Origin: a virus | Lineage: Duplodnaviria; Heunggongvirae; Uroviricota; Caudoviricetes | Strand: one strand, 5' to 3' | IMG/VR virus record: IMGVR_UViG_2563366886_000002 | Coordinates: 1 to 38,381 of that record | Length of the DNA stretch: 38,381 nucleotides | Shown here: positions 5,499-24,997 of the stretch, piece by piece | Numbering within the stretch: position 1 is the stretch's first letter | How the letters are laid out: each line of letters opens with the position of its first letter | Position numbers and translations under genes: made by a program | Notes under the pieces: generated by a model | The model's input: the letters and a program-made list of their open reading frames with translations, nothing else | Database searches by the model: none | Told to the model about the DNA's origin: nothing

Positions 5499-5536
5499 TT
5501 GCGGAATTAATTACGGACCGTTATCATTCTGCTCCC

Positions 5537-5612: not shown

Positions 5613-5712
5613 TCACAAACCGCCATTAGCTTATCAGGAAGAGCAGACGACACGATAACAGGGTTGTTGGTGCGGGGGCGGGTCCCCGATGGCGGTCCAT
5701 TATCGGTATTCA

Positions 5713-5786: not shown

Positions 5787-5899
5787 CTATATTCATTCTT
5801 CCAGATTCCTTCCGGCAGAGCCTTATACTGAAATATACTTGGCTCAGGATCTTGTTGAAAATATTATATGTTTGTCAAAAATAAAAGTTCTGTTAAGTA

Positions 5900-6253: not shown

Positions 6254-6644
6254 ATACATATCTGGATTATCACTTGTTACGGTAAAAAGTGATTGCTTAC
6301 TGTTTTTGTGAATGGCATTGCAGCAGCCGGATAATGTCAGTGCTGGCTGACGGTGTGCTGGTGGCGGGTGTGGTGGTTATTGCTTTCCCGTTGCTGAAAA
6401 AGAAAACGCCAGACTGTTAGCCGGGTATCAGTTAGCGGGAGAAATTTTTAAATACTTCACAATTCAGGCGGTTGACTGTTGTCTGGTTTGCGGGGAGTTT
6501 GTTAAAAGAAACTGGCATGGTGAATCCCCCTGTGCGGAGGGGCAATCAGCGAGTAGGTATATGGGATAATCGCGGATTCAGGTGCTGGTACTGAATTCAC
6601 CGGGAGGCACCCGGCACCATGCAATGGCACATAGCGCCACTCTC

Positions 6645-6680
6645 CAGCCCCTCTCCGGAGGGGCTGTTTATATTGATTTT
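6645..6680 (+). terminator. rho-independent terminator (plus-strand oriented)
   Basis: CAGCCCCTC-TCCG-GAGGGGCTG 9-bp stem followed by TTTATATTGATTTT. Confidence 0.65.
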
Positions 6681-10268: not shown

Positions 10269-10619
10269 ATGCCCCCACGAATCCCACGCGCCTGCCGTAA
10301 GCGTGGATGTGCAGGTACAACCACAGACAGTTCTGGTTACTGCGATAAACATCGTGGCGAAGGATGGGTACAGCATCAACGCGGACTGAGCCGCCACCAG
10401 CGTGGCTATGGCTCGAAATGGGATGCCATACGTGCGCGCATACTGAAGCGTGATAATCATCTGTGTCAGAACTGCCTGCGCAATGGGAGAGCCGTTGAAG
10501 CCAGAACTGTGGACCACATCATTCCGAAAGCTCATGGTGGCACGGATGCAGACAGTAACCTGCAGAGTCTGTGCTGGCCCTGTCATAAAGCAAAAACAGC
10601 GCGCGAACGCATCAATTGA
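10269..10619 (+). CDS. HNH endonuclease (packaging-associated), helper prophage
   Basis: MPPRIPRACRKRGCAGTTTDSSGYCDKHRGEG...CQNCLRNGRAVEARTVDHIIPKAHGGTDADSNLQSLCWPCHKAKT; immediately upstream of terS/terL. Confidence 0.8.
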   Translation: MPPRIPRACRKRGCAGTTTDSSGYCDKHRGEGWVQHQRGLSRHQRGYGSKWDAIRARILKRDNHLCQNCLRNGRAVEARTVDHIIPKAHGGTDADSNLQSLCWPCHKAKTARERIN

Positions 10620-10766
10620 TAACAGTTCCCATCTGTAGGGGAGGGGCAGGTCAAATCTCTGCAACCCTGGCTGCTCAGTACCGCCGCCTGACCTTTCCTC
10701 GCATCGCCGCAGGTTCGAAAACTTTTTTTTGGAATGTGATTAAATGATTGATAGGTAAAACCGATT

Positions 10767-11249
10767 ATGTCTGGACCCCCGAAAACCCCGCCACGCCTGC
10801 ATTTGATACGAGGTAACCCCTCAAAGCGGCCAGTTAAAGACTCCAAAAAAACCGCTAAAAAGGATGAAAAAGGTCTCCCTAAAATTCCGCAACATTTAGG
10901 GGCGCAGGGGAAGTACTGGTTCAGGCGAATGGCGGAAGAGCTGAATGCGGAAGGGATCATTTCTCAGCTCGATGCACGTGCGCTCGAGTTACTGGTGGAA
11001 GCCTACACCGAATACCGGCATCACTGCGAAATACTCGATGTTGAGGGTTATACCTACCGCACGGAAACGCAGAATGGCGATGTGCTGATCAAGGCACACC
11101 CGGCTGCTGCGATGAAGGCTGATGCCTGGAAGCGGATTCGGGCGATGCTTGCAGAGTTTGGTATGTCACCGGCAAGCCGGGCGAAAGTAAATACCGCCGG
11201 ACCGGATGATGTTGATCCGCTGGCAGAGCTTTTAAAAGCGAGAGACTGA
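10767..11249 (+). CDS. terminase small subunit (P27 family), helper prophage
   Basis: 160-aa ORF between HNH and terL; stop overlaps terL start; P27-family-like composition. Confidence 0.7.
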   Translation: MSGPPKTPPRLHLIRGNPSKRPVKDSKKTAKKDEKGLPKIPQHLGAQGKYWFRRMAEELNAEGIISQLDARALELLVEAYTEYRHHCEILDVEGYTYRTETQNGDVLIKAHPAAAMKADAWKRIRAMLAEFGMSPASRAKVNTAGPDDVDPLAELLKARD

Positions 11250-12277
11250 TGGCAAAAGTGGCTGACGGGATCCGCTACGCCGAACGTGTTGTTGCAGGAG
11301 AAATTGTTGCTGGCGAATTTGTCCGTCTGGCCTGCCAGCGTTTTCTTGATGATCTGAAGTACGGCGAAGAGCGGGGGATTTATTTCAGTGAACCTCGTGC
11401 ACAGCACATCCTTAATTTCTACAAATTTGTACCCCATGTGAAAGGGGCGCTGGCAGGTCAGCCCATTGAGTTGATGGACTGGCATGTGTTTATCCTCATT
11501 AATATTTTTGGTTTTGTCATTCCGCTGGTGAATGAAGAAACCGGGGAAGTTGTCATGCGCAGCGATGGCAGTGGACGCCCGGTGATGGTGCGCCGGTTCC
11601 GGACAGCATACAACGAAGTTGCCCGTAAAAACGCAAAATCAACCCTGTCATCGGGTATCGGTCTGTATATGACGGGGGCAGATGGTGAAGGCGGGGCTGA
11701 GGTGTATTCAGCCGCAACCACGCGTGACCAGGCCAGAATTGTGTTTGAAGACGCCAAAAATATGGTCAGAAAAGCCCGGTCGACACTCGGGCGGTTGTTT
11801 GATTTCAACAAGCTGGCGATTTACCAGGAGCAGAGCGCATCAAAATTTGAACCGCTTTCCTCGGATGCAAACAACCTGGACGGTCTGAACATCCACTGCG
11901 CCATTATTGATGAGCTGCATGCTCATAAAACCCGTGACGTGTGGGACGTTCTGGAAACGGCAACCGGTGCCCGTCTGCAGTCTCTGTTATTTGGCATCAC
12001 CACGGCTGGCTTTAACAAGGAAGGGATTTGCTACGAGCAGCGCGATTACGCCATTAAGGTATTGCGAGGCTATAACAGCGACGTGGAGGGCGCGGTAAAA
12101 GACGACTCCTACTTTGCGATCATTTACACGCTCGATGAGGGAGATGATCCGTTTGATGAAACGGTCTGGCAGAAAGCGAATCCTGGCCTGGGCATCTGTA
12201 AACGCTGGGATGATCTGCGTCGTCTGGCGAAAAAAGCGAAGGAGCAGGTCTCTGCGCGGGTGAATTTTTTTACCAAG
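11249..12277 (+). CDS. terminase large subunit, N-terminal (ATPase) portion only; interrupted by the inserted element
   Basis: MAKVADGIRYAERVV...KANPGLGICKRWDDLRRLAKKAKEQVSARVNFFTKK aligns by eye with residues 1 to about 330 of the intact terL at 25338..26999; frame then reads through the att junction into int. Confidence 0.8.
12263..12277. repeat. attL core (left junction of inserted element)
   Basis: AATTTTTTTACCAAG; 12/15 identical to AATATTCTTACCAAA at 27508..27522, with a 7-bp identical core TTACCAA; both copies in the terL reading frame. Confidence 0.6.
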
Positions 12278-12406
12278 AAAGTAACATCACGCCGTAACAA
12301 CAGTGCGACCTGTCCTGATTTTTTTAGTAACCAAATGAAAGAAAAAGATTTTTTTCTTGTTCGTCGTTTTTGTTTTTTCTGGAAGGTTCTGGCTGTTTTC
12401 ATCATT

Positions 12407-12429
12407 TGTGTATTGCACTGTGTATTGCA
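12407..12429 (+). repeat. tandem direct repeats (candidate integrase arm-type sites / int promoter), left arm
   Basis: TGTGTATTGCA c TGTGTATTGCA 20 bp upstream of the int ATG; related GTGTATTGC pair at 27419..27439. Confidence 0.5.
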
Positions 12430-12448
12430 AAAACGGGTTATAAATCAC

Positions 12449-13671
12449 ATGGCGCTAAACAAACTGAGCGATAAAAAACTTCGTTCCCTGCTTGGACGCA
12501 GGAGTGAGAGGCAGGAAACCATCGCTGATGGTAACGGGCTTTCGGTACGGGTCAGTAAATACGGATGTGTTAGTTTTGTTTTCTTTTACAGACTGGCGGG
12601 AAGGGAAACCGCGCCCATCTGGCTGACACTTGGAAAATATCCTGATCTGAGTCTCAAATCAGCGAGAGAGATGCGCGATCAGTGTCGAACTTGGCTTGCG
12701 GAGGGCAGAGATCCACGGATTCAGATAAAAATTGAACGGGAAGCCACCTTGCAACCTGTTACCGTTCGTGAGGCACTTGAATACTGGCTTGATAATTATG
12801 CAATGGATAAGCGTAGGGGAGCAGAACATATCAGGCAGTGCTTTGGTAAACATATTTATCCGGTGATTGGTCATGTACCACTTAGTGATTGCTCTATATC
12901 TATGTGGATTAAGTGTTTTGACAAAATAAAAAAAGTAGCACCTGTACAGGCCGGAGCTTTGTTGCGTATATCAAAACAGGCGCTTAAATTTTGTAGGGTA
13001 AGAAAATACGCGATTAGTCATGAAATTGATGATCTTGAGGTCTGTGATGTGGGAAAAAAGTCTGCGCGAAGAAGCAGGGTTTTAACAGATGATGAAATCA
13101 GAGATTTATGGCGAAGTATTAATACTGATTATGACAATCACGAATTATCATATGAAAACCGAATTATTTTACGTTTCCTGGTAGTTTTTGGTTGTCGACT
13201 GTCAGAAGTATTACTGTCGTCCTGGGTAGAGTGGGATTTTGATAAGAAATTATGGCGCGTTCCCGCTGATCATAGCAAAAATGGCAGGGAAATAATCAGA
13301 CCGATTCCTGATGGCATGTTTAACTGGTTAGTTACGTTAAAAAAATAACAGGTAACAAAGAAAATGTGATTGGGTTTGATATGCGTCAGTGTACGGCAAG
13401 CGTAACTATCGGTAAGACATGGAAAAGGATGAAACACTCGGAGAAATGGACGGCGCATGATATGCGAAGAGTGTTTGCCACAAAACTAAGTGATCATGGT
13501 TTTGAACATAATGTGGTTGAACAGTTGCTTGGGCACACATTAGGCGGTGTTGCCGGGGTTTATAACAGAAGCCAGTATATGGACAGAAAAAAAGAAGCTA
13601 TGAACTGGTGGTACGACTATCTGAATAAGCAAATTAGTGGTGACAGTAATGATTCAAATAGTTACGCGTGA
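12449..13671 (+). pseudogene. int: tyrosine integrase (P4-like), reading frame split by a frameshift at an A7 run
   Basis: N part MALNKLSDKKLRSLLGRRSERQETIADGNGLSVRV... ends TAA at 13346..13348; catalytic C part (..WTAHDMRRVFATKLSD..LLGH..VYNRSQY) continues in the -1 frame (13366..13671); A7 run at 13339..13345. Confidence 0.6.
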
Positions 13672-13870
13672 AGAACTTGAAAATGATGAAACAATCGACA
13701 GGATGATTAAGGAAGATGAATGTGCATGGTTAACCGCTCTTGGCAGGAGACACAGATCGTTACTTGAAAAGGAAGGAAAATTTCCACGAAAAATATGTAT
13801 TGGCCCACAAACAAAAGTCTGGCGCTTATCTGAGGTGCTGGAATGGGTAAAAGGTGAATGGAAACCCTGA
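13637..13870 (+). CDS. AlpA-family DNA-binding protein (excisionase/regulator-like)
   Basis: ...ECAWLTALGRRHRSLLEKEGKFPRKICIGPQTKVWRLSEVLEWVKG resembles AlpA helix-turn-helix; start uncertain (several Met). Confidence 0.55.
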   Translation: MVTVMIQIVTREELENDETIDRMIKEDECAWLTALGRRHRSLLEKEGKFPRKICIGPQTKVWRLSEVLEWVKGEWKP

Positions 13871-13895
13871 GCTAAATTAAATGAGATATAATCAA

Positions 13896-13918
13896 CCCGT
13901 CTTTTGGCGGGTTTTTTT
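13896..13918 (+). terminator. rho-independent terminator
   Basis: CCCGTC-TTTT-GGCGGG hairpin plus T7. Confidence 0.6.
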
Positions 13919-13933
13919 ATAGGTGATATTTTT

Positions 13934-14212
13934 ATGCAAAAATTTATTTATCCTACACCCGAAGAACGCATTCAGATTCTGAAAGATCATGGCGAACCGT
14001 ATGATCGCCGTATACGCGAACATGAGTGTGCCAATCGTACCGGGCTTTCAAGAAGCAGACGTTGGGTACTTGAACAGGAGGGAGCATTTCCTGCTCGTGC
14101 TCATTTAGGGAAAGTGTCTGTTTCCTGGTTGCTCTCTGATGTGCTCTGGTGGGTTATGCATCCGCCAGGAGTAAAGGAAGTAAACAGCCCATACAAAAAC
14201 GCCAATAAGTAA
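13934..14212 (+). CDS. second AlpA-like DNA-binding protein
   Basis: AGGTGA RBS; MQKFIYPTPEERIQILKDHGEPYDRRIREHECANRTGLSRSRRWVLEQEGAFPARAHLGKVSVSWLLSDVLWWV. Confidence 0.55.
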   Translation: MQKFIYPTPEERIQILKDHGEPYDRRIREHECANRTGLSRSRRWVLEQEGAFPARAHLGKVSVSWLLSDVLWWVMHPPGVKEVNSPYKNANK

Positions 14213-14233
14213 TTACCGACAACCCCGCACCAC

Positions 14234-14261
14234 GCAATGCGGGGTTTTTTGTATGTGAGGT
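14234..14261 (+). terminator. rho-independent terminator
   Basis: CCCCGCA-CCACGCAA-TGCGGGG plus TTTTTT. Confidence 0.7.
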
Positions 14262-14269
14262 AAAAAGCA

Positions 14270-14848
14270 ATGAATAAAAATATTGCCGTGACGGGCAAGG
14301 GTGACGCACGTCATGTGAAAAAATTCTGTGATATTCGTGATCTGGTCGTTCTGCGCTTTGATGGCGTGGATGTTCGTGTGGTGTATCTAAACGGCGATCC
14401 GTGGTTTGTTGCAAAGGATGTTTGTGCTGCGCTGGAACTGACCAATTCGCGTACGGCGTTGCAGATGCTTGATGATGACGAAAAGGGAGTAAATTTAACT
14501 TACACCCCCGGAGGAAATCAGAATATGAGCATTATCTCCGAATCAGGTTTCTACAAACTAATAGCCCGCAGCCGCAAAGCAACGACGCCTGGCACATTTG
14601 CTCATCGTTTCAGTAACTGGGTATTCAGAAATGTGATACCGGGTATCAGAAAAACGGGGGCTTATGGTATCCCGTGGGGCGCATTACAGGATTTTTCCCG
14701 CCGCAAAGAGCAATACCAGATAAGTGCCAGTGAGAAGGGGAGGGAGCTACAGGCATGTAAGCGCAAAAAGCGTGAGCTGGAGGAAGAAGAAAAAAGGCTG
14801 ATACGTGAATACCAGCCTGAGTTTTACTTTGGTGAGCGTATTCAGTAA
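14270..14848 (+). CDS. Bro-N domain protein (antirepressor-like)
   Basis: N-terminal VRVVYLNGDPWFVAKDVCAALELTNSRTALQMLDDDEKG typical of Bro-N/AntA N-terminal domains; charged coiled-coil C-terminus. Confidence 0.6.
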   Translation: MNKNIAVTGKGDARHVKKFCDIRDLVVLRFDGVDVRVVYLNGDPWFVAKDVCAALELTNSRTALQMLDDDEKGVNLTYTPGGNQNMSIISESGFYKLIARSRKATTPGTFAHRFSNWVFRNVIPGIRKTGAYGIPWGALQDFSRRKEQYQISASEKGRELQACKRKKRELEEEEKRLIREYQPEFYFGERIQ

Positions 14849-15126
14849 CCACACGCGGTGTTGATTATACGGTACATCGTGTTGACCGGGAAGCTACCCA
14901 CCAGCAAGGCAAAATCTTCTGCTAAAAAATGACATATGACCAGTCGTCCGGAAAGCATGAAATTTTACAAAAATGGAAAATGAAGATTTTTATTGTGCTG
15001 GTGGGTAAAAACAAAAAGCGCCCCGTTGCCGGAGCGCCCTTGCGAACAATTAACCTACTGCGCAAAAAATGAATATAAGCTGTGGAATTATATCAGACAG
15101 GTGACGAAGCGCCACTATTGCCGGAT

Positions 15127-15162
15127 AACAGGCAAAACAAAGGCGACCGCAAAAGGGTCGCC
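15127..15162 (-). terminator. rho-independent terminator for the leftward regulator operon
   Basis: GGCGACC-GCAAAAG-GGTCGCC perfect 7-bp stem; T-rich on the reverse strand (TTGTTTTGCCTGTT). Confidence 0.6.
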
Positions 15163-15228
15163 AGTGGGAACAAGGGAAAACAAAAGCATCACCAACAATG
15201 CCACATTTGCGGCTGGTGGGCAATGTGA

Positions 15229-15417
15229 TCAGTCAGATTTGGTTCGTTCCAAGGTTTGCAACGAGAGCTTTTTCCTGCGCTCTTTAAGGAATTTCTCAAG
15301 AGCAAACGAACAAGGTGCGAATCTTTCTGATTCATGCTCTATCTTTCTGCGCCGTCTTTTCCGTGTCGGTGATAATGTTTTGGTCAATTCTTTATCGGTC
15401 ATTGTGTTGTCCTGCAT
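15229..15417 (-). CDS. small basic hypothetical protein (62 aa)
   Basis: Reverse-strand ORF MQDNTMTDKELTKTLSPTRKRRRRKIEHESERFAPCSF...; downstream of the repressor-like gene, upstream of the reverse terminator. Confidence 0.35.
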   Translation of the reverse strand: MQDNTMTDKELTKTLSPTRKRRRRKIEHESERFAPCSFALEKFLKERRKKLSLQTLERTKSD

Positions 15418-15459
15418 AGCAATGCGCCGTAGTTACTCACACCACGGCGCTGATAGTGA

Positions 15460-15657
15460 TTATTCTGATTCTTTGGCCTTCCGGCGCTGTTCATATTTTA
15501 ATTTGCGTCCACAGGCATCTAAGACCCATGCGGAAAAATTAGCACTAGGATTAGTTAATTTTTCTTGTTCAACGCTGGCATCAATCCCATCTATAAGCTC
15601 ATGTGGGAATCGAATATTTTTCTTTGCTGATTTGTTGTTTGTGTTACCGCTAGACAT
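15460..15657 (-). CDS. small putative DNA-binding protein; candidate element repressor
   Basis: 65-aa reverse-strand ORF MSSGNTNNKSAKKNIRFPHELIDGIDASVEQEKLTNPSANFSAWVLDACGRKLKYEQRRKAKESE; divergent from, and adjacent to, the palindromic operator-promoter. Confidence 0.4.
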   Translation of the reverse strand: MSSGNTNNKSAKKNIRFPHELIDGIDASVEQEKLTNPSANFSAWVLDACGRKLKYEQRRKAKESE

Positions 15658-15725
15658 TGATGCACCTCACTTAAATGGACTTTATGGGCGCACACAATAC
15701 AGCAAAAAAAATGAGATGTTAAGTA

Positions 15726-15764
15726 TTGACATGTGCGCACACATGATTTTAATCTGTGCGCACA
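15726..15764 (+). promoter_or_regulatory. rightward early promoter of the element overlapped by two palindromic operators
   Basis: TTGACA (15726..15731) and TTTAAT -10 candidates; two perfect 10-bp palindromes TGTGCGCACA at 15732..15741 and 15755..15764, 23 bp centre to centre; degenerate third copy GCGCACACA at 15689..15696. Confidence 0.6.
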
Positions 15765-15862
15765 GTTTGAGTTTTGTCACTCAAATTAAGCAACGCCCCG
15801 CAGTGCTCGCAACACATGCAGGGCGTCTAACCACCAACGATAGCAAGAGTATCGAGGTAGCT

Positions 15863-16066
15863 ATGAGAAATCATACCACACACCCGCAAGGGCGGGACTC
15901 GCACAACCTGAATAAATATATCTGGCGTTTTATCGCCCTGAGCACGGCACAACCGCGCGTGATTACCATTGAGGCCACCAGCGAACAGGAAGCACGCCAG
16001 CAATCCCCGGCTGGCTGCGTGATGGTATTCGCCGCCCGTATTCGTCAGGGGGTACACCATGATTAA
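15863..16066 (+). CDS. hypothetical protein (67 aa), first gene of the rightward operon
   Basis: MRNHTTHPQGRDSHNLNKYIWRFIALSTAQPRVITIEATSEQEARQQSPAGCVMVFAARIRQGVHHD; stop overlaps next start. Confidence 0.45.
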   Translation: MRNHTTHPQGRDSHNLNKYIWRFIALSTAQPRVITIEATSEQEARQQSPAGCVMVFAARIRQGVHHD

Positions 16067-16271
16067 CCTGTCACTTACCGACCTTAACCGCATCCAGTTT
16101 CGTGAGAAATTCACCGGGCAGTTGCTAGTCAATGTGGATAAAGGTCGCGTGGTGAGTAATTACCACCTGCCAGATGAAGCAATTGTCGCAACAAGGGAAT
16201 CATTACAGGAACTCGCAGAGCGTGTCGGAATGATTAACGCGAATATTCAGGGGGGGGTGAGCCATGCATGA
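16059..16271 (+). CDS. hypothetical protein (70 aa)
   Basis: Start-coupled ORF MINLSLTDLNRIQFREKFTGQLLVNVDKGRVVSNYHLPDEAIVATRESLQELAERVG. Confidence 0.45.
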   Translation: MINLSLTDLNRIQFREKFTGQLLVNVDKGRVVSNYHLPDEAIVATRESLQELAERVGMINANIQGGVSHA

Positions 16272-16497
16272 TATTTACAATGACACAGTAGATCATGCAT
16301 ACAGCGCACTTGCTTACAGTGAAAACATGCTTGAAATATTGCGCTTATGGCTTGAAACGCTTGGCGATAATGAAAGAGATAAACGCAACAGCAATATTGC
16401 AACAGCATTAATAACGCTTCTTGAGCCTGTAATAAATGAACTGCAAGAAATAGACATCTTGCACGACAGATATAAAGAGCAACACACCGGGAAATAA
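16264..16497 (+). CDS. hypothetical protein (77 aa)
   Basis: Start-coupled ORF MHDIYNDTVDHAYSALAYSENMLEILRLWLETLGDNERDKRNSNIATALITLLEPVINELQE. Confidence 0.45.
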   Translation: MHDIYNDTVDHAYSALAYSENMLEILRLWLETLGDNERDKRNSNIATALITLLEPVINELQEIDILHDRYKEQHTGK

Positions 16498-16502
16498 AAA
16501 CC

Positions 16503-16802
16503 ATGAAACAGAAAATTTCTGGCTTTACTGCCAGCGGCCCCGCTCGGCCTGAAATCCGCCCCGGCGATATTTTCCGGGATAACTACGGCGGCACGGTAAC
16601 GATTAAAAGCGTGGCGGGACGGTGCGTTACTTACCGCCGTGATGGGTACGGCTATGACTGCGTGATGCCTGTTTATCAGTTCCGGCGTGATTTTTCTCTG
16701 GTACAGAACGCAACACGCGGTAAGCCCACCAGCAGGGAAAAAGCACGGGAAAATATTAAGAAAATAAAAAGCATGCTCAGCGCATCCAGAGGTAAAAAAT
16801 GA
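16503..16802 (+). CDS. hypothetical protein (99 aa)
   Basis: MKQKISGFTASGPARPEIRPGDIFRDNYGGTVTIKSVAGRCVTYRRDGYGYDCVMPVYQFRRDF...; stop overlaps the rep start (ATGA). Confidence 0.45.
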   Translation: MKQKISGFTASGPARPEIRPGDIFRDNYGGTVTIKSVAGRCVTYRRDGYGYDCVMPVYQFRRDFSLVQNATRGKPTSREKARENIKKIKSMLSASRGKK

Positions 16803-18919
16803 AACTGGCACCGAACGTAAAACTGTTACCGAAAGATAAAGGCGAGGATGCAGTGATTTTTGCGGGGGATGACGCATACAGCCACGCAGAGCATTACATG
16901 CAGGGCGGAGAAGCCAGAAAGCGCGGCGACAAAATACCACCTGTTTATCTCGGGCGGCGTGACCTGGGTAATCTGGAAAACCTGCGTATTGTGGATGATG
17001 GACGGTTACGCGCCATGGTCAGACGTGCCGGAAAGCTGGATGACAGACAGGCGTTACAGATTGAAACCCTGCTGGCAGTGGCTGGTGTTAAGGAAGCCAG
17101 TTTTTGTGACGAGAACGGTGAACTACTGGAGGACTGGACACCGCAGCTTGCCCGGCTGAAAGACGAATACGAGCGCGGGGAAAGTCTGGTGTTGCCCTTA
17201 AAGAAAAAAATCACAGAAAGCCAGGGCGATGATGAATTAAAGCCCCGCGTTGAAAGTCGCGCCGATGGTGTTTTCTGGGTAACGCCCAAAGTTGACAAGC
17301 AGTCAGGCGAAATTATCCGGCCTGAGACGTGGTTATGTTCCCCGCTTGAACTACTGGGAACGGGGACAATCGGCAAAGAGCATTACCGCGTGATGCGCTG
17401 GAAGAAACCCGCAAACCATGAAGTCATCACAATGGCGGTTCCGTGCGGGGGCATTGGCGACCGTGACGGCTGGCGGTTGCTGAAAGACCACGGCCTTAAC
17501 GTAACAACTAACGGCAAATACAGGGCTATCCTGGCTGACTGGATGCAGTTAAGCGGAAACCATGAGGAATGGCAGTTAAGCACAACAACGGGCTGGCATT
17601 TTGGTGCGTACATCATGCCGGACGGTTCAGTCATTGGTGAGTCTGAAAAACCGATCCTGTTTACCGGAAAAACGGCTGCCGTTAATGGCTATTCTGTGGC
17701 AGGAACGGCGGAGGGCTGGCGCGATACCGTTGCGCGGCTGGCTGGTGGTAATCCGTCCATGATGCTGGGTGTGGCGGTATCGTTATCCGCACCATTAATC
17801 GGGCTGGTGGGTGCTGACGGCTTCGGGGTACATCTTTTCGAACAGTCATCGGCAGGGAAAACCACCACACAGAACATCGCATCCAGTTTATGGGGAGAGC
17901 CGGACGCGCAACGGCTGACCTGGTACGGTACAGCGTTAGGCATCGCCAACGAGGCAGAGGCGCACAATGACGGGCTATTACCCCTGGATGAAATAGGTCA
18001 GGCCGGAAACGCGCGGGAAGTGTCCACGTCGGCTTATACGCTGTTTAACGGTTCGGGGAAATTACAGGGGGCGAAGGACGGCGGCAACAGGGAGATCAAA
18101 CACTGGCGCACGGTGGCAATCAGCACCGGAGAAATGGACGTTGAGACATTCCTCAAAACGGAGGGGATAAAAGTCAAGGCGGGGCAGCTTGTCCGCCTGC
18201 TTAACGTGCCAATGGAAAAAGCCACGCAGTTTCACGAATACAGCACCGGAAAGGCACACGCAGACGCGTTAAAGGATGCCTGGACAGAAAATCACGGGGC
18301 GGCGGGGCGTGAATGGGTTAAATGGCTGGCAGACCACCAGCAGGAGGCAAAGGATACGGTAAGGGCATGCCGTGAACGGTGGCGCAACCTGATACCGGAG
18401 AGTTACGGCGAACAGGTTCACCGTGTGGGGGAACGATTCGCCATGCTGGAGTCGGCGCTGGTGCTTTCCGTCCATATTACTGGTTGGGATGTTCAGGCGT
18501 GCCGCGATGCCATTCAGCATAATTTTAATGCCTGGGTGAAGGAGTTCGGCACGGGTAACAGGGAGTTTAAACAGATGGTTGAACAGGCAGAGGCTTTTTT
18601 AGCGTCGTTCGGATTCAGCAGATACCTTCCGTGGCCCAACACCGACGAGCGTGATTTACCGATTAAAGAGCTTGCCGGATACAGAAAGGGGAGTATCAGA
18701 AACGAAGATGACGAGTTCCGTTTTTACACGTTCCCGCATGTATTTGAGGGTGAGATAGCACAGGGATTTAATCCGTCTCACTTTGCCCGCGCGTTGAGTG
18801 CTGCCGGAATGCTGGAAGCGGGTAACGATCGCCGTTACAAGAAAAAGGCGCTCGGCAAAATTGGGGGGAAGCAGCATGTTTTTTACGTGCTGATGTTCCA
18901 GCCTGAGGCAGAAGATTAA
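16799..18919 (+). CDS. replication protein, DUF927-type P-loop NTPase (primase/helicase-like) of the element
   Basis: 706-aa ORF with Walker A GxxxxGKT (SSAGKTTTQN); followed immediately by an iteron cluster; architecture typical of satellite/PICI replication genes. Confidence 0.6.
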   Translation: MKLAPNVKLLPKDKGEDAVIFAGDDAYSHAEHYMQGGEARKRGDKIPPVYLGRRDLGNLENLRIVDDGRLRAMVRRAGKLDDRQALQIETLLAVAGVKEASFCDENGELLEDWTPQLARLKDEYERGESLVLPLKKKITESQGDDELKPRVESRADGVFWVTPKVDKQSGEIIRPETWLCSPLELLGTGTIGKEHYRVMRWKKPANHEVITMAVPCGGIGDRDGWRLLKDHGLNVTTNGKYRAILADWMQLSGNHEEWQLSTTTGWHFGAYIMPDGSVIGESEKPILFTGKTAAVNGYSVAGTAEGWRDTVARLAGGNPSMMLGVAVSLSAPLIGLVGADGFGVHLFEQSSAGKTTTQNIASSLWGEPDAQRLTWYGTALGIANEAEAHNDGLLPLDEIGQAGNAREVSTSAYTLFNGSGKLQGAKDGGNREIKHWRTVAISTGEMDVETFLKTEGIKVKAGQLVRLLNVPMEKATQFHEYSTGKAHADALKDAWTENHGAAGREWVKWLADHQQEAKDTVRACRERWRNLIPESYGEQVHRVGERFAMLESALVLSVHITGWDVQACRDAIQHNFNAWVKEFGTGNREFKQMVEQAEAFLASFGFSRYLPWPNTDERDLPIKELAGYRKGSIRNEDDEFRFYTFPHVFEGEIAQGFNPSHFARALSAAGMLEAGNDRRYKKKALGKIGGKQHVFYVLMFQPEAED

Positions 18920-18941
18920 CCCCCTGTGTGAGGTGAAAAGT

Positions 18942-19066
18942 TGCGGGTTATGCGGGTTATCCTGTGTATAAGTGCATTAACTGTATGAATAAAAAGGAAA
19001 TCAGTAACCCGCACGTAACCCGCAAAACGGCAGTTATAACCCGCAAAAGTGCGATTATAACCCGCA
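18942..19066. repeat. iteron cluster (candidate origin of replication of the element)
   Basis: 9-mer TGCGGGTTA twice in tandem (18942..18959), AT-rich spacer, then inverted copies TAACCCGCA at 19005, 19016, 19037, 19058. Confidence 0.65.
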
Positions 19067-19129
19067 GAATTTCACCGTAAGGGTGTAAACAAGCGTAACA
19101 ATCAACGTTAAAACCGGAGAACAGACAGC

Positions 19130-19555
19130 ATGACAGCACAGATAGCGGCTTACGGGCGGCTGGTGGCTGACCCGCAGTTAAAGACCACCAGCAAGGGGAC
19201 ACAAATGGCTATGGCGAGTATGGCGGTTCCCCTGCCGTGCAGCCAGGCAGATGACGGAACGGCGACGATGTGGTTATCCGTCCTGGCGTTTGGCAGACAG
19301 GCCGATGCACTGGCAAAACACCAGAAAGGCGAACTGGTGAGTGTGGCGGGTAACATGCAGGTAAGCCAGTGGACAGGCCAGAACGGCGAAATGCGGCAGG
19401 GCTGGCAGGTCATCGCAGACAGCGTAATCAGTGCGCGAACGGCGCGACCGGGCGGCAAAAAAGGCCAGCAGGGCCAGGCTACTGACGCACTGAACAGGGC
19501 AAAACAACAGACAGGCCAGCACGATGATCCGTACGGGGACGGGATACCGTTTTAA
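19130..19555 (+). CDS. ssb: single-stranded DNA-binding protein
   Basis: OB-fold-like N-terminus (IAAYGRLVADPQLKTTSKGTQMAMASMAV), Gly/Gln-rich linker, acidic tail ending DDPYGDGIPF (SSB-type DIPF tail); GGAGAA RBS. Confidence 0.7.
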   Translation: MTAQIAAYGRLVADPQLKTTSKGTQMAMASMAVPLPCSQADDGTATMWLSVLAFGRQADALAKHQKGELVSVAGNMQVSQWTGQNGEMRQGWQVIADSVISARTARPGGKKGQQGQATDALNRAKQQTGQHDDPYGDGIPF

Positions 19556-19570
19556 GCAGTGAGGTACAGC

Positions 19571-19867
19571 ATGATTAAAGACAGCAAAGCGGAAGAACTG
19601 GAGGCTAAAGGGCTGTACCGGAGAGCGGCGGCACGTTGGGCTGATGTTATGTGGCTGGTGAGCACTGACAAGGAGCGCGAACAGGTGGCAAAGCGTCGCG
19701 CGGAATGTATCCGTAAGGCAGCGCGCCAACCAGTCATACCGGATAATTTCGGAATACTGAAAGAGGCCATAAACCGCACACATACCGGGATGGGCTTACA
19801 GAAACCTGGCGGTGAGATGTTCAGGAACTACCCGAAAAAAAAGGGGATAATTGATAACGGTTGTTAA
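19571..19867 (+). CDS. PerC-family transcriptional regulator-like protein
   Basis: MIKDSKAEELEAKGLYRRAAARWADVMWLVSTDKEREQVAKRRAECIRKA resembles PerC/Pch proteins as recalled; GAGG RBS. Confidence 0.45.
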   Translation: MIKDSKAEELEAKGLYRRAAARWADVMWLVSTDKEREQVAKRRAECIRKAARQPVIPDNFGILKEAINRTHTGMGLQKPGGEMFRNYPKKKGIIDNGC

Positions 19868-19899
19868 CTGTTTCTGGTATCGTGGTAGCAGGAGGAAAC

Positions 19900-20148
19900 A
19901 TGCCTGTGACATTTGAAGAAGTTCAGCAACATAAAAAGTTTCATGGTTTTGATGATCTGGAAACCACGACAGCAAAAAAATATCGCCGTCTGCTTTCTTC
20001 CGATGCGTTGTTTGTTGTGGATCATCATGATTTTCTGCGCAGCTCACTGACCGGGGAAATTTTCGCAACCAACCGTGAGCAGGTGGAAGCGATGATCGAA
20101 TACCTGTGGAAACTAAGAAGCAGAATGCGGGATCCCGTGAAACGGTAA
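19900..20148 (+). CDS. hypothetical protein (82 aa)
   Basis: AGGAGG RBS; MPVTFEEVQQHKKFHGFDDLETTTAKKYRRLLSSDALFVVDHHDFLRSSLTGEIFATNREQVEAMIEYLWKLRSRMRDPVKR. Confidence 0.45.
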   Translation: MPVTFEEVQQHKKFHGFDDLETTTAKKYRRLLSSDALFVVDHHDFLRSSLTGEIFATNREQVEAMIEYLWKLRSRMRDPVKR

Positions 20149-20157
20149 AATGATAAA

Positions 20158-20185
20158 GGCCTGGTAAAATCCAGGCCATTTTTTT
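20158..20185. terminator. terminator hairpin between convergent genes
   Basis: GGCCTGG-TAAAAT-CCAGGCC followed by ATTTTTTT on the plus strand. Confidence 0.65.
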
Positions 20186-20690
20186 ACAGTAAGCCTATTA
20201 AGGCACTTGCGCCAGCCCCAACAATGCTGGCAACGGTACTGTTTTCCAGTAACTGCTTTAATACTGATTTGGCTTGTACATCCCCCGATTTAGAGACTTT
20301 TTCAACCAGTTCAGTGATGCTGATGTTTACCAGCATATGGTTATGCTCACCTATCTGCACTTGATTACCACTAATTGAACCAATGTTAAATGTATTACTT
20401 TTAGGTGGCGTCATATGTTCATTTCCCGTGATATTTTCAATATAGAGCGTCAACATATTTGGATGGTTGGTTCCCTGTCTGAGGGTTCCATTGGGAAGCA
20501 ACTTCATATCTATAATTTTTAGATTTATCTCGTTTTTACCGACACACTGGATAATGTGTTGACCAATAGTTACTTCCGGTTCATTTGTATATGGAATTAA
20601 TACCTTGTTTTCTTTTGCGTTTCTTTTACCTTTAAATGATTCGCCATTAATTATGAAAGTATCAGGGTATACCATTGCGCTTAAATTCAT
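20184..20690 (-). CDS. AT-rich accessory protein of unknown function (168 aa) with hydrophobic Gly/Ala-rich C-terminal tail
   Basis: Reverse-strand ORF MNLSAMVYPDTFIINGESFKGKRNAKENKVLIPYTNEPEV...NSTVASIVGAGASALIGLL; AAAGGA RBS; markedly lower GC than the flanking modules; own upstream region and terminator. Confidence 0.5.
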   Translation of the reverse strand: MNLSAMVYPDTFIINGESFKGKRNAKENKVLIPYTNEPEVTIGQHIIQCVGKNEINLKIIDMKLLPNGTLRQGTNHPNMLTLYIENITGNEHMTPPKSNTFNIGSISGNQVQIGEHNHMLVNISITELVEKVSKSGDVQAKSVLKQLLENSTVASIVGAGASALIGLL

Positions 20691-20976
20691 GATGCGTCCT
20701 TTGTTGTAGTCAGAGGTAGCAATAATAGGCCATGGTTTACTTCTTTTGTAAATTATTTGTTCGTGTTTTTTCGTGGTTGTTCGGCCTTACTGACAGGTGT
20801 TTACATACTGATTTTTATGTATATGTTGGCGTGTGGCACTCAGACGTGAGCCGCCACAATGCCGCCTGACCCCCTGCGCGATGCCGGGTTGATCTGCGAG
20901 ATGCCGAGAGTGTCGGGCGGCGCTCCCTCCGTGTTGGTTTCACGTCCTGAATCTTAACCAATACGAGAAAACCTTC

Positions 20977-22146
20977 ATGAAGAAATTAATCGAACTCCGC
21001 CAGCAAAAAACCGCCCTGAAAAACCAGATGCGATCCCTGCTGGAAAAAGCCGACAGTGAAAACCGCAGCCTGAACGATGACGAGGGCAAACAGTTTGATG
21101 AACTGCGTGCAAAAGCCGATTCCCTCGACACAGAAATTTCCCGCCTCGAGTCTGTGGCTGATGAAGAACGCAGCAAGCCAGGAACGGGCATCCAGAAATT
21201 ATCATCTGATGAATTGCGTAACTACATCGTAACCGGAGATGTGCGATCACTGACCACCAGCACTGACAGCGGCAGGGATGGCGGATATACCGTAATTCCT
21301 GAGCTTGATCGCGAAGTCATGCGCCAGCTACAGGATGACAGTGTTATGCGCGTGATCGCGACCGTGAAGACCGCAAAATCAAATGAGTTTCAGAAACTGG
21401 TTTCCACTGGCGGCGCAACTGTAGGACGAGGCACAGAAGGCAGCGCACGTAGTGAAACCAACACCCCGAAAATTGAACGTGTAACCATCAAGCTGAATCC
21501 GATCTACGCCTACCCGAAAACCACGCAGGAAATCCTGGATTTTTCAGAGGTGGATATTCTGGGCTGGTTATCCTCCGAAATTGCCGACACGTTCGCCAGC
21601 ACCGAAGAGGATGATTTTGTTAATGGCGACGGTAACGGCAAGCCGAAAGGCTTCATGGCTTACACCCGTGCGGCGACCAGTGACAAAACCCGCGCTTTTG
21701 GCACCATTGAAAAAGTGGTAGCGGCAAGTGGAACCGCCATTACAGCGGACGAACTGATCGACATTCTCTACAAGCTGAAAGCGAAATACCGCAAAAATGC
21801 CGTCTGGGTGATGAACTCGGGCACGGCAGGGACACTACAGAAGCTGAAAAATGAGAATGGCGATTATATCTGGCGCGACAGCCTTAAAGAAGGTGCGCCG
21901 GATATGTTGCTTGGTCGTCCTGTTTTCTGCCTGGAGTCCATGCCGGACATCGGCGCAGGAAAAGCACCGCTAGCGGTTGGCGATTTCAGTCGTGGTTATT
22001 TCATCGTTGATCATGTAACAGGGATTCGCACCCGACCGGACAACATTACTGAACCCGGATTCTACAAGGTCCACACGGATAAATATCTGGGCGGTGGTGT
22101 GGTGGATTCAAACGCCATCAAAATTCTGGAAATGAAAGCTGGCTAG
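20977..22146 (+). CDS. major capsid protein, HK97 fold (element copy)
   Basis: 389-aa ORF with N-terminal coiled-coil delta-domain-like region then capsid-like body; paralogous by eye to the helper capsid at 30232..31449. Confidence 0.75.
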   Translation: MKKLIELRQQKTALKNQMRSLLEKADSENRSLNDDEGKQFDELRAKADSLDTEISRLESVADEERSKPGTGIQKLSSDELRNYIVTGDVRSLTTSTDSGRDGGYTVIPELDREVMRQLQDDSVMRVIATVKTAKSNEFQKLVSTGGATVGRGTEGSARSETNTPKIERVTIKLNPIYAYPKTTQEILDFSEVDILGWLSSEIADTFASTEEDDFVNGDGNGKPKGFMAYTRAATSDKTRAFGTIEKVVAASGTAITADELIDILYKLKAKYRKNAVWVMNSGTAGTLQKLKNENGDYIWRDSLKEGAPDMLLGRPVFCLESMPDIGAGKAPLAVGDFSRGYFIVDHVTGIRTRPDNITEPGFYKVHTDKYLGGGVVDSNAIKILEMKAG

Positions 22147-22200
22147 TCATGAGTAAGGAGGAGGCTGCGGCCTCCTTTTTCAGCTTTATGGAGTACACCG

Positions 22201-22761
22201 ATGAAAAACACCGATTTTGAAATCCGCACATCTGAACTGACCGCCAGCAATAAAAAGCTGGTGGGGTATGCCGTTCGCTGGAACAGCCTTTCAGAAATTA
22301 TCTGGGACGAATTCCGCGAACAGTTCACGCCGGGGGCTTTTGCTGACTATCTGGCGGCGGGTAATGATGTGCGCTGCCTGTATGAGCATGACTATACCCA
22401 ACTGCTGGGGCGCACCAAATCCGGCACTCTGGTACTGACTGGGGACAACACCGGGCTACGTTTTGAACTGACACCGCCTGATACCCAGCTTGGAAAAGAT
22501 GTGCTCACGCTGGTGTCGCGTGGCGACATTACAGGAATGAGCTTTGGCTTTCGCGCATTATGCGAAGAATGGAATATCGCGCAAAAACCGTATTTGCGTA
22601 CCGTAACCGCCGCTGAACTCCGAGAAATCACAATAACGTCGATGCCTGCTTATCCAGAATCTGGCGTGGAGATTGCCCACCGTTCGTTGTTTGCACAGCA
22701 CCCTGAATTACGCCCGGCAGGAAATAATCGTCATCGCTGGGCTGAACTGGCGGGGTTGTGA
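22201..22761 (+). CDS. prohead protease, HK97 family (element copy)
   Basis: 186-aa ORF between capsid and portal; resembles the helper protease at 29618..30217. Confidence 0.7.
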   Translation: MKNTDFEIRTSELTASNKKLVGYAVRWNSLSEIIWDEFREQFTPGAFADYLAAGNDVRCLYEHDYTQLLGRTKSGTLVLTGDNTGLRFELTPPDTQLGKDVLTLVSRGDITGMSFGFRALCEEWNIAQKPYLRTVTAAELREITITSMPAYPESGVEIAHRSLFAQHPELRPAGNNRHRWAELAGL

Positions 22762-22762
22762 T

Positions 22763-23977
22763 ATGTGGTGGCCTTTTAGTCGTAAAAAAAGCGAGCAACG
22801 TAACCTGTCCATTGATGATTTTCTGGCGCTGTCCGGCGTACCGAATACCGGATCCGGAGAATATGTTTCTGCCGGGACGGCTGAATCATTGCCTGCTGTG
22901 ATGAACGCGGTTTCTGTCATCGCTGAGGCGGTGGCCACGATGCCGTGTTATCTGTATCTGGTACGTAATGACAAGGGCAGGGAGGCGCGGGAATGGCTGG
23001 ACAGTCATCCGGTAGATATTCTGCTGAATGAGCAGCCTAATTCGTGCCAGACACCTTACCAGTTTAAACGCACAATGATGCGTCACTGTCTGCTGAACGG
23101 TAACGCCTATGCGGTTATTGAGTGGGGGCAGGACGGGCAGCCAAAATCACTTCATCCTTATGCGCCGGGGTGTGTTGTACCGGAACGCACAGGCGCACAC
23201 AAATACCGCTATACCATCACCGAACCCTGTACAGGAACGGTGCGCACGTATTTACAGGAAGAAGTTCTGCATCTCCGCTATGCCTCGGATGATGGCTTTC
23301 TGGGGCGCTCCCCTGTCACGATTTGCCGTGAGGCGCTGGGGCTTGGCCTTGCTCAACAGCGCCACGGAGCCAGCATTATGAAAGATGGCATGATGGCGGC
23401 AGGGATTATCACGTCAGGCGAATGGCTGGACGGCGTGAAAGGTAAACAGGCATTAGACGCACTGGAACGCTACAAGGGGGCGAAAAATGCCGGAAAAACG
23501 CCAATCCTTGAAGGGGGCATGGATTACAAGCAACTGGGAATGAGTAACCAGGATGCTGAATGGCTGGCCTCCCGTCGCTTCTCCATTGAAGACATTGCCC
23601 GTATGTTCAACGTGTCGCCGATTTTTCTTCAGGAATACAGCAACAGCACCTACAGCAATTTCAGTGAGGCAAGCCGCGCGTTTCTGACTATGACAATGCG
23701 TCCGTGGCTGGCGAACTTCGAACAGCAAATCAAGGCCGCTTTGCTGGTGGCTTCTCCCGTACCTGGTACCCGTTATCTGGTTGAGTTTGATTCAGCCGAT
23801 TTACTGCGCGCCACCCCTACCGAACGTTACGCCACGTATGAGAAAGGGATTAAGAACGGGATCATGAATCCGAACGAAGCCCGTGAGCGTGAGGGAATGC
23901 CGCCGCGTGAAGGTGGCGACGAGTTCAGCCAGGCATGGAAGCAGACTGTGGAAATTAAAGGTGAAAAAGATGAGTGA
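22763..23977 (+). CDS. portal protein, HK97 family (element copy)
   Basis: 404-aa ORF MWWPFSRKKSEQRNLSIDDF...; conserved stretches shared with the helper portal (e.g. FLQEYSNSTYSNFSEASRAFLTMTMRPWLANFEQQ vs FSNITQQAIQFVRYTMMPWVANWEQE). Confidence 0.8.
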   Translation: MWWPFSRKKSEQRNLSIDDFLALSGVPNTGSGEYVSAGTAESLPAVMNAVSVIAEAVATMPCYLYLVRNDKGREAREWLDSHPVDILLNEQPNSCQTPYQFKRTMMRHCLLNGNAYAVIEWGQDGQPKSLHPYAPGCVVPERTGAHKYRYTITEPCTGTVRTYLQEEVLHLRYASDDGFLGRSPVTICREALGLGLAQQRHGASIMKDGMMAAGIITSGEWLDGVKGKQALDALERYKGAKNAGKTPILEGGMDYKQLGMSNQDAEWLASRRFSIEDIARMFNVSPIFLQEYSNSTYSNFSEASRAFLTMTMRPWLANFEQQIKAALLVASPVPGTRYLVEFDSADLLRATPTERYATYEKGIKNGIMNPNEAREREGMPPREGGDEFSQAWKQTVEIKGEKDE

Positions 23978-24269
23978 AGACAAAATTACACCTGATGAAG
24001 TCAGGGCACATCTTCGCCTTGATGACTTTTCCGGAGAAGGCGAACTTCTGAAAATGTATACCGATGCGGCGCTGGAAGCCTGCCAGAAGCATATCGGGAA
24101 ACGTTTTGAAGACGGGCTGGAATTTACCCCGGCAATACGTGTTGGTTGCCTGATGTACATCGCTTTCCTGTACGAGAACAGGGAAGCGGTTTCACCTGTG
24201 GAACAGTCTGAACTGCCTATGGCTATTTCTGCGCTCTGGTCGGTTTATCGTGATGTGGGGGTGTACTGA
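23970..24269 (+). CDS. head-tail connector protein (gp6-like), element copy
   Basis: MSEDKITPDEVRAHLRLDDFSGEGELLKMYTDAALEACQKHIGKRF...; start overlaps portal stop (ATGAGTGA). Confidence 0.6.
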   Translation: MSEDKITPDEVRAHLRLDDFSGEGELLKMYTDAALEACQKHIGKRFEDGLEFTPAIRVGCLMYIAFLYENREAVSPVEQSELPMAISALWSVYRDVGVY

Positions 24270-24709
24270 TGCCGTGGCAACCATTAAGGCGATGCACTGA
24301 GCCGGGCTGTAATAAGCGCGTGAAGTCCGGCAAGTGTGAAGAGCACAGGCGGGCTGCATGGCGTGCAGAGGATGCCAGACGGGGGCACCGCCGCGCGCGT
24401 GGGTATTCCCGGCAGTGGGACAAATACCGCGCCCTGTACCTGAGCAAAAACCCGTTATGCGTGCGTTGTCTGGCTAAGGGGATTTATACGCCAGCTCTTG
24501 TGGTGGATCACATCATTCCCATCAATGGCGGCGGTGATGTTCTCTTCTGGCCTGAGTGGAACCACCAGGCATTGTGCCAGACGTGCCACAACCGTAAGAC
24601 GACACGGGAAGATCCAGCCACGAAAGCGAACCGTAAGGCGGGCATGTATCGCGAGCAGGAAGAACGGGCGGCACATCGTAACGACTGGATGTATGGCGAT
24701 GATGACTGA
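24269..24709 (+). CDS. HNH endonuclease (element copy)
   Basis: CTEPGCNKRVKSGKCEEH ... VVDHIIPINGGGDVLFWPEWNHQALCQTCHNRKT; start overlaps connector stop. Confidence 0.8.
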   Translation: MPWQPLRRCTEPGCNKRVKSGKCEEHRRAAWRAEDARRGHRRARGYSRQWDKYRALYLSKNPLCVRCLAKGIYTPALVVDHIIPINGGGDVLFWPEWNHQALCQTCHNRKTTREDPATKANRKAGMYREQEERAAHRNDWMYGDDD

Positions 24710-24997
24710 ACAGGAGCAAAACAGGCTGATACGTGGACTGATAAGGCAGCGTGACTTATGGAAGACACAGGAGACAGGGCACAAAGTCAACAGGACAGGG
24801 CGCACAGAACGCACCACACCGAAGCGATTAACCGACCGTGACCGCGAGGTCATGGAATGTTTTCGCAATCGCTGGTGAGGCTGTCAGAGGGGGTGGGGGA
24901 GGTTTTCAGGACGAAACCGTCCCTGCCGGACACCGACCGCCTCCTCAAATTTTTGTGCACGGGAATTTTTTTGAAAATAATTGGGCGAAAAAAGAAC

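Follow-up and report, generated by a model that had tools for sequence, protein, structure and literature searches.

In the Staphylococcus aureus pathogenicity islands (SaPIs) and in the PICIs (phage-inducible chromosomal islands) of Gram-positive bacteria, the island is kept quiescent by Stl or Rpr repressors, which are encoded divergently from the satellite replication operon, exist as many specificity alleles and are insensitive to SOS. In the PICI papers that could be searched, which cover the literature incompletely, no repressor is described for the Gram-negative PICIs, and the difference from Gram-positive islands, which Stl controls, has been called "a mystery" (PMC6092414). Later papers on capsid-forming PICIs (cf-PICIs) and helper-embedded PICIs (HE-PICIs) invoke only AlpA or P4-like RNAs (bioRxiv 10.1101/2022.09.08.507074; PMC10111431), and the HE-PICI paper assigns immunity in this zone to the C4/isrK RNAs (PMC10111431). 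Here we analyse the control region of a satellite found in the IMG/VR virus record IMGVR_UViG_2563366886_000002 (Caudoviricetes), whose 38,381 nucleotides form the window to which our positions refer. The region lies between ylcI, a small reverse-strand gene of the YlcI/YnfO (DUF3950) family, and the icd-like gene that opens the rightward replication operon, and it is best read, from its sequence, as the immunity/control module of a helper-embedded cf-PICI. We consider it likely that YlcI is an allele-specific ribbon-helix-helix (RHH) repressor which shuts the icd-primase promoter and regulates its own synthesis. As in the Stl/Rpr class, ylcI is divergent from the replication operon, the predicted operators lie on the operon promoter and the protein would keep the island quiescent. 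However, Stl and Rpr are much larger helix-turn-helix (HTH) proteins, not homologous to YlcI, and their derepression by helper proteins is demonstrated, whereas the ylcI module is known here from sequence.

An earlier note on this DNA had described two palindromes, a TTGACA abutting the first of them, a -10 candidate overlapped by them, a degenerate third copy, a 65-aa reverse-strand gene and a rightward operon, and all of these elements are indeed in place (Table 1). The stretch described in the note ends at 15863, the first base of the icd-like gene. TTGACA directly adjoins the O1 core. The core of O3, TGGGCGCACA (15685-15694), has one mismatch to TGTGCGCACA and lies 47 bp upstream of O1. 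The distance of two helical turns that was given for the palindromes is about right: O1 and O2 are 23 bp apart from start to start, which is 2.2 turns and not exactly two. The proposed sigma70-like rightward promoter is backed by TTGACA and by the -10 columns conserved among related loci, but a simple consensus promoter scan called the leftward promoter and made no call for the rightward one. P_icd was missed because its -10 matches the consensus at three of six positions and its spacer is 18 bp long.

Table 1. Positions of the predicted control elements, the leader hairpins and the surrounding genes in the window.
Feature	Position	Strand	Sequence or composition	Remarks
O1	15731..15742	.	ATGTGCGCACAC; palindrome core TGTGCGCACA at 15732-15741	Predicted operator within the -35/-10 spacer of P_icd
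O2	15754..15765	.	CTGTGCGCACAG, perfect 12-bp palindrome; core TGTGCGCACA at 15755-15764	Lies over the 3' part of the -10 and over the predicted start
O3	15684..15695	.	ATGGGCGCACAC	Weaker operator; abuts or overlaps the -10 and start of the leftward ylcI promoter; predicted autoregulatory
P_icd	15726..15755	+	-35 TTGACA 15726-15731; 18-bp spacer; -10 TAATCT 15750-15755	Probable start near 15762
P_ylcI	15694..15722	-	-35 TTAACA 15722-15717; 17-bp spacer; -10 TATTGT 15699-15694	Called by consensus scan
Leader hairpin 1	15793..15826	+	ACGCCCCGCA..loop AGTGC..AACAC..TGCAGGGCGT, then conserved single-stranded TCTAACCA	10 pairs, 7 compensatory
Leader hairpin 2	15833..15858	+	Inner stem CGATA/TATCG 15838-42/15850-54	5 pairs, 4 compensatory; 98% of cells paired
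ylcI	15460..15657	-	65-aa YlcI/YnfO (DUF3950) protein	Predicted RHH repressor; K12, N14 and R16 are the predicted DNA-reading beta-strand face
icd-like gene	15863..16066	+	67 aa; first gene of the rightward operon	NCBIfam phage_ICD_like 69.8 bits; RefSeq annotation
Remaining operon	16059..18919	+	Two small open reading frames, DUF4222, DUF927 primase/helicase (16799-18919)	
Leftward-unit tail	15014..15417	-	orf62 (15229-15417), then two intrinsic terminators (15162-15142, 15041-15014)	
alpA, second alpA-like gene, BRO-N gene	13637..14848	+	Upstream, co-oriented	Pfam Phage_AlpA twice and Bro-N

The comparison with related loci, about 50 elements in all, is the decisive evidence, because the three-site layout recurs in 44 loci of other genera. 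A profile search with YlcI homologues in one-genome-per-species contigs retrieved 45 loci, in 44 of which the operator spacing was counted. These 44 belong to the Enterobacterales and Orbales (Serratia, Rahnella, Klebsiella, Pectobacterium, Xenorhabdus, Proteus, Morganella, Pantoea, Gilliamella, Orbus and others), and all the loci retrieved follow one plan, which together with the back-to-back promoters bears out the divergent control region proposed before. From the ylcI start the plan runs over about 30 bp to a degenerate operator beside a minus-strand -10 of the TATAGT type and then through an A/T-rich tract. There follow TTGAC, immediately after it a 12-bp pseudo-palindrome (G/A)TGT-N4-ACAC, a TA..GT -10, the second operator, the leader and the icd-like gene. 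The centres of O1 and O2 are exactly 23 bp apart in 39 of the 44 loci, and the O1-O3 distance is 46-47 bp in most of them, or about 70 bp where a fourth copy exists. When 36 loci were aligned on the -35, TTGAC, the TA..GT -10 and the operator flanks were the columns of highest information; across 25 loci the leftward -10 (TATAGT/TATTGT) is also among the best-conserved columns. The operator cores vary among loci (TGCGCA, TATATG, TTTAAA, TGCGGA, TACCCC and others), and the copies within one locus change together: own O1 and own O2 differ by 1.5 mismatches, as against 4.5 with a foreign-type O1, and own O1 and own O3 by 2.7 on average, as against 4.2.

Like the layout, its conservation and the concerted variation of the operators, the covariation between protein and operator is shown by computation. 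Operator divergence correlates with divergence in the five residues before the invariant I-R-F-P motif of YlcI (r=0.56), the value for the remaining 30 aligned core positions being r=0.06. A partial Mantel test with the rest of the protein controlled gives 0.58 (p=0.0002), and the converse gives -0.16. Position by position the signal falls on residues 11, 12 and 14, while K13 and R16 are invariant. In a profile alignment YlcI 11-27 lies on Arc 8-24 as a weak match (E=0.007), in which YlcI KNIRFPHELID is aligned with Arc FNLRWPREVLD, and K12, N14 and R16 stand opposite Arc Gln9, Asn11 and Arg13. These three are the base-contacting side chains of Arc in the Arc-operator crystal structure. The Arc sequence used was checked against PDB 1arq/1par. 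Therefore, the covariation and the Arc-based fold assignment indicate the same reading head, and the statistical evidence points to beta-strand residues as those that set the specificity on a pseudo-palindrome, as is characteristic of RHH proteins. The earlier proposal that the palindromes are the operators of the adjacent protein is thus favoured by three computed properties, namely the concerted variation of the copies, the 23/46-47-bp phasing and the covariation with the predicted DNA-reading residues.

The domain matches of the ylcI product are to Pfam DUF3950 (28.3 bits, cut-off 25), the only domain matched, and to the NCBIfam family YlcI_YnfO_N (NF041551; 59 bits, cut-off 30); a family-profile sequence search of the solved structures and a Foldseek search against the PDB gave no matches. 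P22 Arc/Mnt (immI), CopG, omega and the RHH antitoxins are, like YlcI, small proteins (53-80 aa), and YlcI may share their build of an N-terminal beta-strand of alternating polar residues and two helices. Arc/Mnt and other RHH repressors act on palindromic operators over divergent or adjacent promoters and regulate themselves, as we propose for YlcI.

From this arrangement we infer DNA binding, repression and the geometry of the dimers. A YlcI dimer would place a two-stranded beta-sheet, to which both subunits contribute K12, N14 and R16, in the major groove of the 12-bp pseudo-palindrome (G/A)TGT-N4-ACA(C). Dimers sitting 23 bp apart on O1 in the spacer and on O2 over the -10 and the start would block RNA polymerase at P_icd, and the icd-like/DUF4222/primase replication operon would be silent in the quiescent satellite. 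The weaker O3, 47 bp upstream, would act on the leftward -10/start region of the back-to-back promoter; since O3 overlaps P_ylcI, YlcI is expected to limit its own synthesis. Matching YlcI beta-strand alleles and operators differ among satellites, and the module would therefore also define immunity groups.

One could argue that YlcI regulates only itself, in the manner of RHH antitoxins and small accessory regulators, that O1 and O2 belong to an autoregulatory array and that the rightward operon is governed by AlpA-driven read-through together with the leader RNA. We regard this as improbable: the best-conserved pair, O1/O2 (1.5 mismatches), lies on the core of the rightward promoter, while the site of ylcI itself is the weakest (2.7), and no conserved toxin-like partner is found downstream of ylcI, where about half of the loci have no open reading frame (ORF). 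A toxin-antitoxin module with an RHH antitoxin was rejected on the latter ground; with no conserved gene after ylcI, YlcI is not an antitoxin.

Between the operators and the icd-like gene there is a conserved structured leader, which the earlier note had overlooked. It lies in 15782-15880, the segment whose conservation is widest among E. coli genomes. We aligned 34 distinct leaders and evaluated them with RNAalifold and pair counts. The leader has 15 pairs in two hairpins, 11 of them with compensatory changes; 94.9% of the alignment cells are paired, compared with 28-44% when the partners are slid, and none of 500 shuffles reaches the covariation score. The predicted minimum free energy (MFE) fold of the window transcript matches the leader hairpins (-33.5 kcal/mol, z=-3.5), and in this fold hairpin 2 pairs the icd Shine-Dalgarno sequence GAGG (15854-15857). 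In loci ranging from E. coli to those of Gilliamella and Orbus, the inter-hairpin linker TCTAACCA(C)AACG (15826-15840; columns 47-58 of alignment A2) hardly varies, which suggests a sequence-specific partner, be it a protein, the ribosome or an RNA. It is conceivable, strictly taken, that the leader inverted repeats act as DNA instead of RNA. A further hairpin with a 9-bp stem (TTTGAGT..ACTCAAA, 15764-15787) follows directly after O2 at the predicted 5' end of the transcript, and other loci have different inverted repeats at the same position, e.g. CTTGATTGAATTCAAGG. Weak Rfam matches to mir-27 and to the R1162 antisense RNA were set aside as chance matches caused by the palindromes and hairpins.

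The two strongly covarying hairpins and the paired Shine-Dalgarno sequence raise the question of whether immunity is RNA-based, as in P4 and P1, with a processed leader RNA that causes early termination or blocks icd translation and with palindromes of secondary importance. The icd-like first gene and the satellite context do recall the P1 immI and P4 immunity systems. In P4 (CI RNA/seqA, C4, isrK) and in P1 immI (c4-icd-ant) a structured leader of the early or replication operon occupies the equivalent position, and the first product of the operon is a cell-division-inhibitor-like peptide, as with the icd-like gene here. C4/isrK matches are also reported in some PICIs (PMC10111431). However, C4 (RF01695) and isrK (RF01394) have no match in 15400-16300 at E<=10, nor anywhere in the window at gathering score, whereas the same Rfam scan finds C4 and isrK in P4 (74.9 and 60.8 bits). 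P4 has no homologue of the leader, of the icd-like protein or of YlcI by tblastn and blastn, a protein repressor with DNA operators apparently stands here in place of C4/isrK, and no complementary partner of the leader loops was found within the window. Immunity by RNA in the place of YlcI is therefore quite unlikely in our judgement, but the protein switch may well be accompanied by an RNA layer, and the leader, to judge from its covariation, may be an additional control layer beside it.

Another regulator of the element could read the palindromes, namely AlpA, as a MerR-like winged-helix protein acting from the 18-bp spacer, or the BRO-N protein. Experiments have established AlpA as the activator of Gram-negative PICI genes (PMC6092414), a palindrome in an over-long 18-bp spacer resembles the geometry of MerR-type activation, BRO-N proteins can bind promoters (CapR of PLE, cited in PMC10111431), and the alpA and BRO-N genes both lie just upstream. 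Still, this reading is very unlikely: the operator type covaries with YlcI residues 11, 12 and 14, the positions of O2 and O3 are unfit for MerR-type activation, and many loci with complete operator sets lack a BRO homologue within 3 kb. Another argument comes from the elements of E. coli. EcCICFT073, the model PICI, carries a 59-aa allele of the RHH protein, GTGGGCCACAC directly after TTGAC and again 23 bp further on, and a degenerate third copy beside TATACA. The cf-PICI of O157:H7, which by position and gene content we take as EcCIEDL933, has no annotated ylcI; the same slot holds an unannotated 57-aa ORF (MSTPLEKRSPPYQMRLPEDFRAQLEEAAKADGDTSLATWIKRVLRKEL..., 5765-5938 (-) of locus L047) that matches Arc (E=0.038) and YlcI_YnfO_N (E=0.0014) below threshold. 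Another perfect palindrome, GGTAATTACC, stands next to it in two copies 30 bp apart (5939-5948 and 5969-5978 of L047), after which come the same leader and the icd operon. The AlpA proteins of the CFT073 and O157 elements are 94% identical, while BLAST finds no relationship between their RHH proteins (24% identity, E=0.26) and their operators are completely different. The palindromes therefore follow the RHH gene and not AlpA.

The O157 ORF with GGTAATTACC looks like a non-orthologous replacement of the RHH cassette. Its position is covered by a plus-strand annotation, "Icd-like pseudogene", that is dubious. In five more E. coli loci the alleles are 59 or 101 aa long, and every one has operators of its own arranged in the same way (GTGTGTTTCA, GTGTTCAACAC, GTGTAAG or CTGGAATCCAG); in these five the conserved sequence is limited to the ylcI 3' end and the leader. 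Conservation restricted to the flanks of the cassette is, by its sequence pattern, the mosaic signature of an immunity region.

That the palindromes are there by chance, or serve as recombination or restriction-related sites, is effectively refuted by the conserved layout and the covariation. Single palindromes of the window are unremarkable (29 perfect 10-bp palindromes against about 39 expected, and three matches to TGTGCGCACA with at most one mismatch against a shuffle mean of 2.1). Their clustering, by contrast, is unusual: an identical pair at most 60 bp apart arose in at most 17 of 1000 Markov simulations, a count that includes trivial overlapping repeats. TGTGCGCACA has no further copies elsewhere in the 38 kb, and the position, number, 23-bp phasing and concerted variation of the palindromes are kept in more than 40 loci of many genera.

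The earlier note had called the region the master switch of the element, relieved by a helper or by an SOS signal. The first part of this claim is overstated. In EcCICFT073, which carries the same module, AlpA over-expression alone leads to pri-dependent runaway replication and deletion of alpA abolishes induction (PMC6092414), so AlpA acts above or around the YlcI switch. EcCIEDL933 shows the same alpA dependence (bioRxiv 10.1101/2022.09.08.507074). YlcI is probably a subordinate lock and not the master switch, because AlpA is required and sufficient for the induction of Gram-negative PICIs (PMC6092414). Relief by SOS is unsupported: no LexA box CTGT-N8-ACAG occurs in 13500-16100, the 65-aa protein has no S24 autocleavage domain (DUF3950 being its only match), and it is the helper, not SOS, that triggers alpA expression in EcCICFT073 (PMC6092414). 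Relief by a helper is plausible.

We favour a release in which rightward alpA-bro transcription would run antisense through ylcI, across the operators and into the operon. The transcripts would come from helper-induced, self-activating AlpA or, when the satellite is embedded, from helper late transcripts entering from terL. A terminator scan called no plus-strand terminator between the end of the BRO gene (14848) and 15460, yet two minus-strand terminators end the leftward unit, which points to such antisense read-through. Read-through by AlpA-driven or helper late transcripts is more likely than SOS cleavage. Alternatively, a helper- or BRO-type anti-repressor could release the lock, and the leader RNA, by pairing the icd ribosome-binding site, would form a second layer.

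The ylcI module resembles the OR1-3 region of lambda (CI/Cro at PRM/PR), as in both cases back-to-back promoters share three graded operators with the weakest one on the promoter of the repressor, and in both the immunity region is a mosaic, exchangeable cassette with conserved flanks. Unlike lambda, the ylcI module has one regulator gene and no Cro-like partner, its protein is probably of the RHH and not the HTH type, and it has no RecA-sensitive domain.

The YlcI family is narrow: clustered at 50% identity, it has 121 representatives among 1.84 billion proteins. K-12 YlcI (DLP12), YnfO (Qin) and the lambda right-end ORF belong to it (43% identity), and the satellite members form a subgroup of their own at 55-82% identity. 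K-12 ylcI (4252-4446 (-) of locus L049) and the lambda-like right-end ORF are divergent from nohD/Nu1 beside cos, without a GTGT-N4-ACAC operator array, and one distant family member (P0137) carries a fused Terminase_2 small-terminase domain. For the K-12/lambda branch this hints at DNA binding in connection with cos or packaging. Pasteurella phage Pmp7 (10.7 kb, satellite-sized) has a 60%-identical YlcI homologue (4853-5011 (+) of locus L058) opposite an annotated 224-aa "transcriptional repressor" (4435-5109 (-)). We rejected this label as independent support, as it belongs to the long opposite-strand ORF; the 224-aa coding sequence is probably a mis-called overlapping ORF.

The element that carries the module is, by its gene content and position, a cf-PICI embedded in the terL gene of a prophage. 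On the prophage side the order is lysis genes, HNH, terS and an N-terminal terL fragment, followed by the satellite (042 annotation, Pfam and NCBIfam). The satellite consists of int, alpA, the second alpA-like gene, BRO-N, ylcI (reverse), the icd-like gene, two small ORFs and DUF4222, and then of the DUF927 primase, ssb, perC, capsid, protease, portal, connector, HNH, terS and a complete terL. Beyond it lie the C-terminal fragment of the prophage terL, portal, capsid and tail genes. The int-alpA-primase order and its own capsid, protease, portal, connector, HNH and terS/terL are those of Gram-negative PICIs, which span about 10-15 kb, and of cf-PICIs, and the flanking prophage terL fragments, all on one strand, correspond to the helper-embedded configuration described by Tommasini, Mageeney and Williams 2023 (PMC10111431). 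The N-terminal terL fragment runs into int as an artefactual 699-aa ORF (11249-13348), and the C-terminal fragment lies at about 27507-28250. The element lies between two copies of an imperfect 21-bp direct repeat, GTGTATTGC(A/G)CTGTGTATTGC, at 12408-12428 and 27419-27439, which are candidate attachment (att) sites.

Over 701 bp around the operators the identity to E. coli 042 is 100%. The substitutions relative to 042, 63 in number, all fall in the flanking prophage (terS and terL fragment; 10274-12109) and none in the satellite (12110-25101), therefore the same satellite sits in a diverged copy of the prophage. Within the satellite only two 1-bp indels distinguish the sequences, at about 13338 and 16250: an A-run that is one A short divides the integrase between two frames, one ending at 13348 and the other spanning 13366-13671, and an extra G lengthens the 70-aa ORF 16059-16271 relative to 042. 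If genuine, the frameshifts would render the satellite immobile; otherwise they are homopolymer sequencing errors. A DNA similarity search against phages gave one short match only. In the prophage part, Rfam matches at 2370-2541, 5537-5609, 5713-5786 and 6486-6675 correspond to the sok antitoxin RNA (106.7 bits), two tRNA genes and STnc100 (132.4 bits).

The gene set of the rightward operon is linked to ylcI in many loci, also in EcCICFT073. Upstream, the AlpA-family genes stand in tandem (13637-13870 and 13904-14212); in EcCIMP1 one of two alpA copies was reported to be dispensable for the PICI cycle and to act on helper excision instead (PMC11773190). The small and very basic orf62 (MQDNTMTDKELTKTLSP.RKRRRRKIEHESERFAPC...) follows the RHH gene in E. 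coli satellites whatever the RHH allele, with homologues in the O157 cf-PICI (5534-5722 (-) of L047) and in EcCICFT073 (4743-4916 (-) of locus L057, annotated as hypothetical). It has no Pfam or NCBIfam match and was not found in the loci of other genera. Long spurious plus-strand ORFs overlap it, e.g. 14993-16066.

An RHH repressor on palindromic operators is a textbook mechanism; what appears to be new is the functional assignment of the YlcI family and of its module in Gram-negative satellites. In the searchable literature, which we covered incompletely so that a prior description is possible, YlcI/DUF3950 figures only as an unexplained accessory or "y-ome" gene (PMC13612085). The assignment gives a probable function and fold to a family of unknown function in E. 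coli K-12 and predicts the residues that set its DNA specificity. The pairs of repressor and operator would be naturally orthogonal, with a possible use in synthetic biology or in PICI-based delivery vehicles. For the Gram-negative PICIs, which were thought to lack a repressor, it offers a candidate that is cheap to test, a small protein with three mapped predicted operators, and the module occurs in the window and in EcCICFT073, while the EcCIEDL933-type element has it as a replaced cassette. It could be, though we put this forward only tentatively and at less than even chance, that the YlcI-type RHH cassettes and their replacements are the missing repressor of the Gram-negative PICIs and cf-PICIs, with one immunity group for each pair of allele and operator, with induction by convergent read-through, AlpA-driven or, in embedded satellites, from helper late transcription, or by anti-repression, so that the RHH lock is silenced or bypassed, and with a leader that adds a step on the icd-like gene. 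If true, this would cover both model elements, EcCICFT073 and EcCIEDL933.

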